A stretch of DNA of 64,000 nt, taken from Octopus sinensis. Its lineage: Eukaryota. Positions within the stretch are counted from its first letter, which is position 1, and every line of letters begins with the position of its first letter. Under the pieces are notes generated by a model, which was given only the letters and a program-made list of their open reading frames with translations, made no database searches and was not told the origin of the DNA. The position numbers were made by a program, and so were the translations under genes. Location of the stretch: assembly GCF_006345805.1 (NCBI RefSeq), contig NC_043003.1, forward strand, positions 115,816,001 through 115,880,000. Direction: 5' to 3'. Shown here piece by piece: positions 1,590-49,520 of the stretch.

Positions 1590-2220
1590 ATAAATAACAA
1601 ACTGAGGAAGAAAAATCCTTCAAAGGGTTGTGTTAATCATCCAATTCACTGTTACGTCAGTTGAATATCATATAAATATTGGTATAATGTAACTAAAAAG
1701 ATAAATTAAATAGAGAGATACTATTCACAATCCAGTGATTTATTTATATCCATAATATTACATGATATACTATGAATATGATACAACATAATATTATATA
1801 ACATAAACAAATTATTAAAAAACATAAAAGCCCAACAATTTGTTTCGACTTTAATATATTTTTTTCTGCCATACATACATGAAAAGAGTTCCTTTATATA
1901 TAAAGCCTCTTCGGGGTCATAGCTTAAAAGTAGACGAAATTCAATCCTGCCGTCCTTTCAAACTGAATTTTGTCTATTTTTAAGGCATGACCCTGAAGTG
2001 ACTTTATATAATGGAACTGTTATTAAGTATGTATGTATATCAGAAAATATATATATAAATCGAAACAATTTGTTGGCCTTTTATTTATTTTTTAATAATT
2101 GTTTATGTTATATAATATTATGTTATATTATATTATATTATATTTATACTATATCATGTAATATTATAATATAAATAAATTATTGGATTGGCAATAGTAT
2201 CTCTCTATTCATCTTTATAT
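1590..2220. mobile_element. Fold-back element with a hammerhead-like motif in each arm (Penelope pLTR-like)
   Basis: Imperfect inverted arms about 1698-1943 and 1964-2216; bounded by TA/CA repeats; 5' part is similar to 6715-6790. Confidence 0.75.
1989..2078 (+). ncRNA. Degenerate type I hammerhead ribozyme motif (antisense copy at 1830-1918)
   Basis: GACC-CTGAAGT-GACTTTATATA...TATATAAATC-GAAAC-AATTT-GTT-GGCC; the other arm reads CCGAAGA...AAAGTC-GAAAC-AAATT-GTT. Confidence 0.6.
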
Positions 2221-3160
2221 ATGCATATATATATATATATATATATATATATTTGTGTGTGTAGTCGTGGCAACCGAATGTTTTTTATTGCTCTGTTTAG
2301 TAAGTAGTTGAAGAACCAGAAACCTTCTCAACTCGAAAAACTCTGAATTTTAATTCCTAATTCTTGCGAAAGCTGCGATATGAAATCAACAGAAGATTAC
2401 CGTTGACCCAATACTGCCTGCAATATAACCTGTGGGAAAACAAATAAATTTTCGTGAGTACAGAGTAAATTTCTCTGGTGCTTCTATTGAATATATGCGC
2501 ACGTACCCATGGATCTAGCAATTTTATTAAATTCATTGAGCACTCAGCATTTACGCGCACACTTTTGACTTTTCACTCGTATATCTCTGTTAAAAAACTC
2601 TCCACTTAAAACTAACGGCTTCACATACAAGACTATCCGTATCAAACTATCACTGAATTTCGAAAAACTCAAACACTGTGTGTGTCTGAGTGAGTGTATA
2701 TGTTTGTATAGACGTGCACATGCGTGCACGTACACAGATGCGCATATTTGCATCAATATGCACATGCAGGCAAAATTATATGAGCGCCTGTGCACACCCA
2801 CATGTAAAACTATAAACTTGCACATGTCACTCATTCCTACTCGCCCCGATCAACACCCTGGCCGACTTCTACTCTATTTCCTGCCCTCCACATGCTCAAT
2901 TTCCTGTTCGCCATGCAGTATTTTCCAACTAACTGTTAGTCATAAACCAACATCAAACCGCGACACCGTGTGACATTCCTCAATCGCAGCGCACCTTACG
3001 GTAATAACAACCGACCTCTGTCATTCAAATTTAAAATGGCTGACGACTGGCTTCGCGTTTGAAACTCAAGTGTACCAACCAATTTGAATCAATCTCTTTT
3101 GAAATATATATATATATATATATATATATATATATAATATATATATATATATATATATAT

Positions 3161-3360
3161 AACGCCATGATAGATCGTTAGCCACTACACATATTTTTTT
3201 CTCTTCTCTTTTTCTCTCCTTGTTTTCTGTGTCATTTTCTGTAGAAGAGCTTAGGCTAGAAACGTAAAAGCCTTTTTGTATTCCTGAGCGTTATACTAAT
3301 ACATTTGTTTGTTTTGTACACCACATGTCTTCGTCTTTTGTTTTTTTCGTAAACTCTCCC
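3161..3360 (+). mobile_element. Short (TA)n-inserted repeat, family F, with a minimal hammerhead-like core
   Basis: Homologous to 6113-6318(-) and 57256-57424(+); shared motif GAAGAGC(G)TAGGCT(C)GAAACGTAAAAG. Confidence 0.75.
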
Positions 3361-3710
3361 TATATATATATATATATATATATATATATATATATATATA
3401 TATATATATATATATAATATATATATATATATGTATATATATATATATATATATATATATGCAGAGATAGATAGATAGATAGATAATAGATAGATAGATA
3501 TAGATAGATAGATAGATAGATAGATAGATAGATAGATAGATAGATAGATAGACAGATAGATAGATAGACAGATAAATAGATAGGTAGATAGATAGATAGA
3601 TTGATAGATAGACAGATAGATTGATAGATAGATAGATAGATAGATAGATAGATAGATAGATAGATAGATAGATAGATAGATAGATAGATAGATAGATAGA
3701 TAGATAGATA
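3361..3710. repeat. (TA)n followed by (TAGA)n microsatellite
   Basis: Read directly from the sequence. Confidence 0.97.
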
Positions 3711-4331
3711 AACATCACTTAGGCACATACAGTTGGGTTACGGTCATAATTTCGTCGATAATTGCTCGTAATCAACACGTTTCACCCGCAAGTTTTAAGG
3801 TGTTTTCTATTCTATTTTGCAGAATCTTATTGTTGTGGTACTTTATAAATACTTGCCTTCATGATGGTATAATGTAATAATATCTCTTAATGTAAACATT
3901 TTTATTTTTTGCTTTACCTTCACCACACCAAAGTTCGCTTCAACGTTTCAGTCTTTGGTTTGCGGATCATCTAACAGCAGTGAATATTCTAGAAGGCTTA
4001 CGTGTTGTTCTGCGTTTTACCTTACAATAATTCATGTGGTGGGCCACATTTTGATAAGCACCGATCTTCACTCATTCACTTTCATCTCTCTCCCTCTTCT
4101 TCTCTTTGTATCTTTCTCTCTTTCTTTGGCTCTCCATCTCTCTCTCTGTGCCTCTCCCTATTTATGCGCATATATATATATACATACATACACACATACA
4201 CACACACACACACACACACACACATATATATATATATATATATATGTATGTATGTATATATATGTATGTATATATATATATATTTATGTATATATATATA
4301 TATATATATATATATATGCATGTATGTATGT

Positions 4332-46779: not shown

Positions 46780-47094
46780 GTTTGTTTGTTTGTTTGTTCC
46801 TTCTCGAGCCATGCCTGGCTCATAAGGGTCGGTTTCCCGGTTTCCTTGGCGTATAGGTTCCCCACCTGGACGGGACGCCAGTCCCTCACTGGTGAGCTGC
46901 AAGATGCAGGAGGAAAGAGTGAGAGAAAGGAGTGGCGAAAGAGTCAGCAGAAGTTCGCCATTACCTTTTGCCGGAGCCGCGTGCAGCTTAGGTGTTTTCG
47001 CTCATAAACACACACATCACCCGGTCTGAGATTCGAACCCACGATCCCTTGACCGCGAGCCTGCTGCTCTAACAACTAGGCCATGTGCCTCTAC
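46780..47094 (-). mobile_element. SINE family B
   Basis: Matches 21273-21580. Confidence 0.9.
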
Positions 47095-47298
47095 ATCGTA
47101 CAACGGTGTTCTGACTTCGGGTCACCTTCTGTTATTTCCTATTACACTATTCCTAAAACACTTTTCTACTCGTTAATCAGCAAAAGAAGATAACAGATCT
47201 CGCTCCACAATTGTATGATTATGAGACTCTAATCCGATTTGAACAGCAGAGAACGGTCAGTTTTAACACATCGTCCCACTTGACATTTTCTCACTACT

Positions 47299-47703
47299 AG
47301 GCGTAGGAGTGGCTGTGTGGTAAGTAGCTTGCTTACCAACCACATGCTTTCGGGTTTAGTCCCACTGCGTAGCACCTTGGGCAAGTGTCTTCTACTAGGC
47401 GGACGACCGAAGCCTTCTGTGTGGATTTGATGGACGGAAAGTGAAAGAAGCCCGTCGTATATATGTATATGTATATATATATGTGTGCGTGTTTGTGTGT
47501 CTGTGTTTGTCCCCCCAACATCGCTTGACAACCGATGTCGGTATGTTTACGTCCCCGTAACTTAGCTGTTTGGCAAAAGAGACTGATAGAATAAGTAGTA
47601 GGCTTACAAAGAATAAGTTCTTGAGTTGATTTGCTCGACTAAAGGCGGTGCTCCAGCATGGCCACAGTCAAATGACTGAAACAAGTAAAAGAGTAAAAGA
47701 GTA
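47299..47703 (+). mobile_element. SINE family A
   Basis: Canonical head and tail. Confidence 0.9.
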
Positions 47704-48949
47704 CTGTCCTGCGAAAAACATGCCAATGTCCTTTCGAGGAGATTGTATTGCCTCAGTATTTTCATGTTATCTGTTTGTATGCATCTCTCTGACTTCATCC
47801 GTTTGTTTCCTTTTGCCTTACCCACAATGGTTGGATATTTCCCAAGTAATTATCAACCATTGCTCCTTCGACTGGAAAGTATGAAGTGAAAGAATTGGCA
47901 TAAACGACTACTGAATTATTAAATAATATTCGCATAGTGAGGATTCAAGTCAAAACAGAATATGTAAATGAAATATTAATAATAAATGGCCATAAGCATA
48001 ATAATCAGTGATAGCAGAAACGATTCTATGAATTTATAAGACGTTCCAGTCACATTCGAAGGTAAATGCGTTCTCATTGCTGTCGTTGGTTGGCATCGGA
48101 GAACGGCTTCTCCTTTCAAATAAATGTGTGGCCATAACCCACTTTCATTTATTAGCATGAGGTGACTTTCTATGAGACACCCGGTCATTCGAAATCGTTG
48201 TCACTTGTCAGATAAAACAACTGTCACAATGTTCGCAGACAATGTTCTTAACGTTGTGTAGCTGGAAAGAATATGGCGGTGCAGTGGCATGAAGATTTTC
48301 ATCAGTGGCCGCATGGATAAAGGTTGAATTAGATCTCGATATCAGAAGTTACAAGAAATATATTTATTTAAATCACATTCGTTAATATATTACAAGGGTG
48401 GAAAAAAATATCAAAAATTCCTTTCAACACACACACACACACACACACACTCACACACACACTCACACACACATACCTACCTACCTACCTACCTACATAC
48501 ATATATACATACATGCATACATACTTACATACATACATACATACATACATACATACATACATACGTACATACTTACATACATACATACATACATACATAC
48601 ATACATACATACATACATACAGGATAATTTCAACCGTGTTTCGTGGTCTACTACAACAACAGCTCCTTTACAGGATCCAATTAGCTCAATACATCATCAA
48701 GAGGAACCACGTCCGGTTTCGGCCCCTACTCCTCTACCATTTTGACGTGGCGCCGCATCCCCACTTTCGGAGGTGTCTTCAGCTCTGGTGTTGGGTGCAT
48801 GTTTTCTTTCTTCTTTCTTCTGTTCCCTGGCCTCTTCGATGTAGCGTCAACGAGTGTCATACATACATATCGGGTCTCCTATACCAGTATGGAAGATACA
48901 ACCCACATCAGTAGCAGCTGTGCCCCCAAACAGTCTACGAGATATACTA

Positions 48950-49520
48950 ACTACCTGCGTCTGAAGTATAATATAGTTGCAGATACAATTTTTATTGCTC
49001 TCCACAGGAAGGACTACCTTGACTAATGCATCAAAATATGTCAGAACCAGCAGGTATTCACACCTTTAAAAGAAAAACTAGGAACACTGGTCGAAAAGGT
49101 CATTAAAACATCAACTCGGGACAAATATAACAGTCTTGATATTGTTTTATGGAACAAGGAACAAAAACCCATGCACTGTCGCAGAGGTTAGATACCCAAC
49201 GGATGTGAATATACAATCAAACATCCAGAAAAAAAAAGAGAACATATATATATAATGTATATCCTGCCCTGACTATAAATACTAATCTATACTTATAACC
49301 ATGGGTGGTTAAGGTCGTGTACCAACAAGCTTGCACGTAAGTTTTCACATGAAAAGAGCAAAAGAAACTGTTGTGGAGTCTCAAAATCCAATCTATTAAT
49401 GGCAAGGTAAATATTTGTAAGACATTCCAAAACTTCGGTAAGTGAGATTCTAATGTGAATAGATACTTAAGCATGGGCGTACGCATCGACATTTCAACCA
49501 ACATCTCAATTCAACAACAT
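48950..49520 (+). pseudogene. Highly decayed Penelope-like reverse transcriptase remnant
   Basis: Peptides in the expected order: ADTIFIALHRKDYLD (ADKG..DY motif), TNKLARK (TYKLAK-like), LSMGVRIDISTNISI (SFDV.SL.TNIP-like); stops and frameshifts. Confidence 0.5.

Follow-up and report, generated by a model that had tools for sequence, protein, structure and literature searches.

Probable Penelope-type insertions with hammerhead-like motifs at (TA)n tracts of an octopus genome, including a non-coding, retrozyme-like 491-nt unit

How did a series of short sequences with hammerhead-ribozyme-like motifs come to lie in and beside (TA)n tracts of the Octopus sinensis genome, and is any of these motifs a credible ribozyme? 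The sequences lie in a 64,000-nt stretch of contig NC_043003.1 (assembly GCF_006345805.1, positions 115,816,001 to 115,880,000), hereafter the window, whose own coordinates are used throughout. The window is microsatellite-rich animal DNA, with 117 tandem-repeat rows and several families resembling short interspersed nuclear elements (SINEs). In it we identified 12 hammerhead-like motifs at nine loci, or about one locus per 7 kb. An earlier note on this DNA had given every locus a type I hammerhead fold. The loci are real but that claim was overstated and is partly confirmed: a single motif (33078-33184, minus strand) combines a perfect core, an NUH triplet and three helices, and each of the other 11 has at least one defect in core, triplet or stem. 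We consider it probable that the loci are insertions into (TA)n of the kind made by Penelope-like elements (PLEs), that a 491-nt unit at 33 kb was copied in trans by a PLE reverse transcriptase (RT) from hammerhead-processed RNA, and that the other loci are older and decaying.

On the plus strand the 33-kb element consists of a (TA)30 flank (32896-32955) abutting its short end, the 491-nt unit (32956-33446), a 107-nt direct repeat of 32956-33062 (33447-33553), an inverted 211-nt copy (33554-33764) and a further (TA)n tract. The unit, which reads on the minus strand, is a young non-coding monomer with 37% GC and no open reading frame (ORF) of 62 codons or more. The direct repeat, also on the minus strand, forms a partial tandem or pseudo long terminal repeat (pLTR) and is 100% identical to its counterpart, and the inverted copy, on the plus strand, is 99% identical and joined head-to-head at an AT-rich palindrome. 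The fold-back that results (33342-33764) has arms 99% identical, and the inverted copy continues for another 104 nt as a tail, which ends in a conserved terminus at (TA)n. The 5' end of the direct repeat is 23 nt short of the predicted ribozyme cut site, and both arms have a common start, an AT-rich palindrome that lies 23 nt downstream of this site. In this one case, the common start of the arms fits a template whose 5' end was set by the ribozyme.

The hammerhead of the 33-kb unit is of type I, with an 8-bp stem I (33184-33177 with 33085-33078), the core boxes CUGAAGA (33176-33170) and GAAA (33101-33098), a stem II (33169-33165 with 33106-33102) prolonged by a 58-nt hairpin extension, a near-palindromic stem III and a GUA triplet, with the cut predicted after 33086. 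Its minimum free energy (MFE) fold is a three-way junction with stem I open (-29.5, versus -29.4 for the constrained fold). When the whole locus is folded the motif is predicted to remain free, with 0 of its 107 bases paired outside it. Folded as a circle, the 491-nt unit is predicted to be rod-like and to retain the hammerhead (MFE -136.2; z = -4.3 against 60 shuffles).

Is this unit a local oddity or a member of a family? Part of it is present in 20 of the 24 public sequencing runs listed, and 12 of the 24 contain at least half of the words sampled from it. Among runs with organism labels A-E the share of sampled words is at least one half, and among those with labels A-G it is 0.42 or more; in one run on record as RNA it is 0.06. 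Contigs matching the unit number 14,090 in run X1 and 6,788 in run X2, both of DNA size, 117 in run X12 and 72 in run X13. The family is plainly large. Among the 40 of 55 variant rows listed, 10 fall in the hammerhead motif, at nine positions. Eight of these nine are within the 26 positions of stems I and II (p = 4e-5), and the ninth is N7, the sole variable core position among the rows listed. All eight stem variants are compatible with pairing and three pairs have changed on both sides (joint permutation p = 0.01): five changes keep or create a pair alone, and three break a pair, each with a listed partner that restores Watson-Crick pairing. G2.1-C1.1 shifts to A-U (A in 65, 50, 46 and 38% and U in 68, 80, 64 and 77% of depth in four runs), one G-C pair of stem II drifts to A-U or G-U, and one U-A pair of stem I becomes C-G or U-G. 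C11.1 is U in 53-100% of depth, restoring the pair, so that in the common form the closing pair of stem II is A-U. The 58-nt extension of stem II carries no variant among the rows listed. Listed variants occur at only 4 of 19 CpG sites, so the pattern is not one of general CpG decay. The family is young, plentiful, structurally conserved and of the known retrozyme or non-autonomous PLE kind; it is probably a cephalopod one and likely lives as a parasite of PLEs.

The loci might instead all be 5'-truncated pLTR ends of an abundant autonomous PLE, the closed 491-nt unit being an insertion rearrangement of a 211+211-nt palindromic stump and a truncated copy. We think this unlikely, even though most PLE copies are reported to be truncated with a lone hammerhead (PMC4209133; Li et al., 10.64898/2026.07.22.740005) and a list of recently active elements in O. 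vulgaris includes 31 Penelope-like families (PMC13282606). At the locus itself, the inverted repeat 33342-33764 has the terminal motif at both ends and contig depth has a minimum around 33330-33380. The unit joins argue otherwise. The head-to-tail join from 33446 to 32956-60 is crossed by eight contigs in X1 and three in X2, plus many variant-letter rows, and 33342-33349 is crossed, into tails unlike this copy, by 47 contigs in X1 and 42 in X2. Both joins are thus crossed in two runs by contigs with letters differing from this locus, and therefore in many copies, which makes the closure of the 491-nt unit a family trait and not a local accident. The share of contigs that continue into dissimilar sequence is 0 for X1 and X2, 0.07 for X12 and 0.03 for X13, and the whole unit folds as a single rod (z score given above). 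The closed unit is compatible with an autonomous parent, and the contigs are too short to hold two motifs in a row. For the 1.6/6.8-kb, 36-kb, 41.6-kb and three-copy families described below, the truncated-PLE explanation is as good as any. The earlier picture of (TA)n-targeted, PLE-type hammerhead insertions of several lineages is supported, as is that of a non-coding, retrozyme-like unit at 33 kb, but the term non-autonomous is supported for the 33-kb family only; the other families may be 5'-truncated ends of autonomous PLEs.

Nor are all of the families unrelated, as had been proposed: alignment shows distant homology between the 33-kb and the 4.3-kb element. The 4.3-kb element (4337-4786, plus strand; hammerhead at 4485-4557) is the older relative. 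Its fold-back (4337-4697, 82% identity) involves the ends only, with a short inverted arm (4337-4402) and a tail to 4786. Downstream of the cut, 137 of 234 aligned columns are identical between the two (z = 6.2; 0 of 500 shuffles), versus z of at most 1.4 in four control stretches. Each element has two 3' ends, one per arm and about 90-105 nt apart, at 146 and 235 nt from the predicted cut in the 4.3-kb element and at 130 and 234 nt in the 33-kb element; the motifs differ in sequence despite these near-equal distances. The motif at 4491 (plus strand) has a perfect core and perfect stems I and II but C at U16.1, one base from intact; like the 33-kb motif, it lies outside the inverted part and is predicted to stay free. 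The terminal motif at 33764 also ends the 4.3-kb element and a stub beside (TA)n at 14472-14552 (plus strand). A pattern for this motif gave four matches against 0.24 expected, an expectation that is too small because the pattern was drafted from the matches themselves, and the homology is claimed on account of the alignment, not of this count. The possibility that 33764 is a random snap-back stop was dropped, as the same terminus recurs at 4.3 and 14.5 kb. The 14 bases that adjoin the stub, 14457-14470, match the antisense of the GAAAC segment at 41.6 kb, perhaps by chance or perhaps through a family link. At 4471-4491, and likewise at 42020-42039, bases directly 5' of the core may form a short hairpin or pairing in competition with stem I or III, possibly a conformational switch or else chance.

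To what extent do the motifs exceed chance? A type I descriptor (at most one core mismatch, stem I of at least 6 bp, stem II of at least 4 bp) matched three times in the window against a shuffle mean of 0.025, and 0 of 40 shuffles reached three; two of the three matches are the arms of a single locus. With a 5-bp stem I there were five matches versus 0.175 in shuffles, and an exact-core descriptor gave one match, which 1 of 40 shuffles equalled. Separate Rfam scans were made at 33, 4.3, 36 and 41.6 kb, the 1.6/6.8-kb and three-copy loci not being scanned separately, and the gathering score of a hammerhead model was reached at none of the four: RF00008 scored 18.3 bits at 4471-4549 (gathering score 48.5), and no hammerhead row was returned at 36 kb or 41.6 kb. 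A scan of the whole window contained no hammerhead family among the 150 of 271 matches listed, which are mostly microsatellites matching microRNA models. Such results would suit an origin of the fold-backs at the DNA level, as miniature inverted-repeat transposable elements or foldback elements, as snap-backs during replication or, in the 33-kb case, as a palindrome artefact of long reads, with the hammerhead look due to chance in AT-rich palindromic DNA. Also in line with this, fold-backs lacking a motif under the strict descriptor exist at 26593-27137, 27617-27817, 34609-34819 and 38796-39645, a type III reading of the 41.6-kb motif is at chance level (16 of 40 shuffles) and no strand-change joint is present among the contig joints listed for the 33-kb family. 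We nevertheless regard a DNA-level origin as very improbable: descriptor matches exceed those in shuffles, variation across the 33-kb family keeps the pairs, the tails are one-sided, and in the 4.3-kb homologue, despite the different motif sequence, the hammerhead lies nearly as far from each of the two ends as it does at 33 kb.

Association with (TA)n was borne out. Twelve of the 18 ends of the nine loci lie within 10 nt of a tract of at least five TA repeats, and all 18 lie within 34 nt, against a background of 1.8% of unmasked window positions within 10 nt of such a tract; several ends were placed by eye, so this enrichment is partly circular. Five fold-backs had been described at 33, 36, 41.6, 4.3 and 1.6 kb, with motifs in both arms at 1.6, 36 and 41.6 kb. 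All five are present, with arm identities from 75% to 99%, and the three double-arm loci do have hammerhead-like boxes in both arms. One-sided extensions occur at four of the five (104, 89, 72 and 104 nt) and none was found at 41.6 kb.

The double-arm loci had been thought to yield, on read-through, a long hairpin with a hammerhead in it. The 36-kb fold-back (35870-36606, arms 35942-36606) has 248-bp arms of 97.6% identity and a one-sided extension of about 72 nt; its outward-pointing motifs, at 36027 (minus strand) and 36521 (plus strand), both have U4>C, and in both GAAA is preceded by an additional U. At the junction of its spacer and right arm (36315-36360) there are a small hairpin and an 11-base duplication, as template switching at insertion would leave. 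The 41.6-kb fold-back (41583-42280, arms 41583-42276, 82% identity) has motifs at 42040 (plus strand) and 41818 (minus strand). Its right arm has a perfect core with a broken stem II, its left arm has A6>G, stem I contains two C.C mismatches, and type I and type III registers compete; the type III alternative, with an in-register 7-bp stem III but no stem I, was dropped on the shuffle result above. The 1.6-kb locus is an old fold-back (1588-2216, arms 1810-2100, 75% identity) with decayed motifs at 1993 (plus strand) and 1914 (minus strand), core defects in both arms, a weak stem I and a one-sided extension of about 105 nt.

Because the motifs of both arms point outwards, the antisense arm is transcribed first on either strand. 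Pairing with the other arm is predicted for 61-62 of 62, 84-87 of 91, 79 of 98 and 76 of 93 motif bases (80-100%), so that on both strands the motif would be buried in an arm-arm duplex and a hairpin with a working hammerhead is not expected. Read-through would give ordinary double-stranded RNA, which may well be edited. Coleoid cephalopods edit their RNA heavily, and long duplexes between the arms are predicted, with an MFE of about -240 to -450 kcal/mol, which could suggest that the double-arm loci are functional, their hairpins being processed by ADAR or Dicer and the hammerhead toggled by editing or partial melting. This we hold to be very unlikely: besides the predicted burial of the motif, six of six arm copies are defective, and arm identity has drifted to 75-82% with no directional A>G bias in the arm mismatches. 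In the sole family tested, that at 33 kb, which is not double-arm, there was no T>C (A-to-I) excess (11 of 44 places in X12 versus 9 of 56 in the DNA-sized runs, p = 0.32). The fold-backs are best read as insertion by-products that would silence the ribozyme on read-through.

What kind of machinery leaves such insertions? PLE insertions are described as having partial tandems, inverted copies, junction palindromes, one-end tails and a (TA)n bias (PMC8557442, PMC3846280), and in vitro two internal RT starts of a PLE give a tail and AT-rich DNA is cut (PMC11167929). With endonuclease-positive (EN+) PLEs the loci here share the partial tandem, the inverted 5'-truncated copy, the palindromic junction, the one-sided tail and the AT-rich or (TA)n target, as well as a hammerhead upstream of the RT starts and opposite-strand hammerhead pairs 100-700 bp apart; partial tandem and inverted copy occur together at 33 kb, and the inverted copy also at the four other fold-back loci. 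The tails are longer (70-105 nt versus 30-40 nt in described PLEs), and EN+ PLEs carry an ORF for RT and GIY-YIG nuclease whereas no locus in the window does. PLE hammerheads are reported to be minimal in form, with a palindromic helix III and low activity in vitro, and to occur as opposite-strand pairs separated by 100-700 bp (PMC4209133); the 33-kb and 4.3-kb motifs differ from the minimal form in that helices I and II are long. An abundance of decayed hammerheads, along with opposite-strand pairs and fold-backs, is already described for PLE-rich animal genomes. Among cephalopods, Naiad PLEs prefer (TA)n in Octopus, Euprymna and Architeuthis (PMC8557442 supplement), but the entries given are old remnants with no canonical hammerhead and a half core in two entries (PMC8557442), and as old remnants, compared by description only, they are unlikely to have driven a young insertion of 99-100% identity. 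Abundant, recently active Penelope families are reported from octopus in papers whose available text does not mention "hammerhead" or "ribozyme" (PMC13282606, PMC8967140).

The 33-kb unit itself is most like the animal non-LTR retrozymes, which are likewise non-coding, low in GC, head-to-tail and a few hundred bases long, with a type I hammerhead, a palindromic stem III, a predicted rod-like fold and proposed PLE machinery (PMC7229834; 10.64898/2026.07.22.740005). Animal retrozymes were defined with a mussel case included, in a main text that has no cephalopods (PMC7229834). Li et al. link retrozymes to PLE pLTRs and take as their criterion arrays of at least two units, each with a hammerhead; molluscs are unsampled in the available text of that preprint (10.64898/2026.07.22.740005). 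At 491 nt the unit is longer than the expressed retrozyme circles reported (170-400 nt) but within the 51-972 bp of Li et al. It is a dispersed 1.2-mer with a PLE-type inverted copy and tail at (TA)n, whereas retrozymes are described as long arrays; its stem II has a 58-nt extension and closes with A-U (A.C in the window copy), whereas retrozymes have G10.1-C11.1. We found no cephalopod retrozyme in the literature searched, outside of which subscription papers mostly fall, and Repbase, Dfam and the O. vulgaris curation could already contain these families.

How, then, might the 33-kb unit have been mobilised? On the explanation we favour, PLE-type insertion of hammerhead-processed RNA, multimeric transcripts would be cut at GUA by the type I hammerhead, acting as a monomer or, via the palindromic stem III, as a dimer, and the cut RNA may be ligated into a rod-like circle. 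The GIY-YIG nuclease of a PLE would nick (TA)n. The RT of the same PLE would start internally, either 130 or 234 nt downstream of the cut. Copying would then cross the unit join and a cleavage site that is uncut (in a multimer) or re-ligated (in a circle), and the inverted arm would form when the cDNA folds back at the AT-rich palindrome or two cDNAs join head-to-head. The other loci would be older insertions by the same kind of machinery, with motifs in decay.

Several observations count against this explanation. The best Rfam match, RF00163 at 33080-33182, scores 18 bits against a gathering score of 34 (E 0.28); the model has 45 positions and the motif 103-107 nt. The canonical G10.1-C11.1 is missing from the window's 33-kb copy, where the pair is A.C, and in place of an array of at least two units the window has 1.2 units and a single hammerhead. 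No autonomous partner is apparent in the window: all 165 of its 165 ORF-like stretches lack an RT or GIY-YIG match in Pfam, two weak and unrelated matches falling below the cut-off. Taken singly within the variant data, the sparing of core and stem III falls short of significance (p = 0.11) and pair compatibility gives p = 0.045. Of 12 common variants that lie elsewhere than in the motif, at sites predicted to be paired, five (33221, 33223, 33231, 33232 and 33234) break the pair. The variants are unphased and weighted by contig depth, the copies are related by descent and 40 of 55 rows were listed; because of the unphased data and related copies, the covariation of the stems argues well, though not conclusively, for selection on the fold. 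Contig depth is no copy number, and the contigs reveal neither ends nor strand. Runs X12 and X13 are RNA only by guess; in them 0 contigs cross the head-to-tail join and just a three-contig loose end in X12 fits it. In published work, one of nine predicted retrozyme dimers cleaved (Li et al. preprint, 10.64898/2026.07.22.740005) and PLE insertion in vitro did not require hammerhead cleavage (PMC11167929). Finally, no extra copies of the families other than that at 33 kb were found in viral contigs, prokaryote genomes or metagenomes, collections unlikely to include this animal.

The mobilisation of animal retrozymes by PLEs has so far been argued from co-occurrence and pLTR phylogeny (PMC7229834; 10.64898/2026.07.22.740005). 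At 33 kb a non-coding hammerhead unit bears the mechanical marks of PLE insertion, namely the partial tandem, the inverted copy, the tail and the TA target, and its family is young and plentiful enough to ask whether hammerhead cleavage sets the template end. The family would add cephalopods to the hosts of such units, together with a hammerhead variant that Rfam misses. A bolder possibility, which we put forward tentatively and think rather doubtful, is that the unit is a very abundant, still mobile, viroid-like 491-nt circular RNA of a cephalopod genome, with an unusual long-armed hammerhead (A-U closing, 58-nt extension), copied by a TA-targeting Penelope RT from cut or re-ligated templates, its 5' truncations clustering just downstream of the cut. 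If so, the insertions would be a direct DNA record of the way in which PLE enzymes mobilise retrozymes and of the part played by the hammerhead.

Two smaller families complete the set of hammerhead-like loci. As had been suggested, 6.7-7.0 kb is related to 1.6-2.2 kb in repeat comparison. This relative (6700-7600, plus strand) is split by a SINE-like insertion at about 6973-7505, and its motif at 6864 (plus strand) has a perfect core with poor stems I and II. The other family has three copies, at 3162-3360 (plus strand, both ends in (TA)n), 6115-6318 (minus strand) and, beyond the range of the earlier note, 57258-57425 (plus strand). Its layout is that of a minimal hammerhead, with a bulged A, a 4-bp stem II and an ACGU palindrome, but each of the three copies departs from the CUGANGA core by A6>U. 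Like the minimal hammerhead ribozymes of PLEs (PMC4209133), it has a bulged base after A9, G10.1-C11.1, a palindromic 15.2-16.2, no loop III and a 4-5-bp stem I; A6>U is absent from the core changes described for them in the available text (PMC4209133). This is the best candidate for what had been called family F. No element ending at 49520 was found, and 48625-49535 has no second copy in the window. Exact CTGANGA..GAAA boxes at 3040, 5576, 9398, 42665, 44646, 48782 and 51512 have no convincing stems or family context and were set down to chance. The same judgement was made for 48690-48800 (minus strand), single-copy sequence in which an exact core box and a GAAAC-CGG segment occur with closing stems absent.

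Other repeats of the window were noted in passing. A 91% fold-back at 34609-34819, within 34515-34819 and beside (TA)n, contains a GAAAC..GUA segment and part of a core, whereas a workable stem II is absent; with a one-sided extension of about 95 nt, it is possibly a decayed PLE-type end. At 26593-27137 there is a head-to-head inverted repeat of 98% identity with arms of about 200 bp, whose inner ends meet at a TA tract with a SINE-like fragment; no hammerhead was found in it, and its inner terminus resembles Helentron-associated (HINE-type) elements. Terminal inverted repeats with arms of about 71% identity are present at 38796-39645, which resembles a decayed mariner-type transposon, and at 27617-27817, and those at 17144-17565 include a 29-bp perfect pair. 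Broken ORF pieces lie beside (TAT)n tracts at 10977-12066 and 9027-9311, both on the minus strand, with no Pfam match; a protein search with 11243-11677 (minus strand) returned 35 relatives at 51-78% identity, and the pieces resemble the C-terminal nuclease region of R4/Dong-type non-LTR retrotransposons. A tandem array at 22978-23800, with about 24 copies of a 34-bp unit, resembles a piece of a local SINE-like family.

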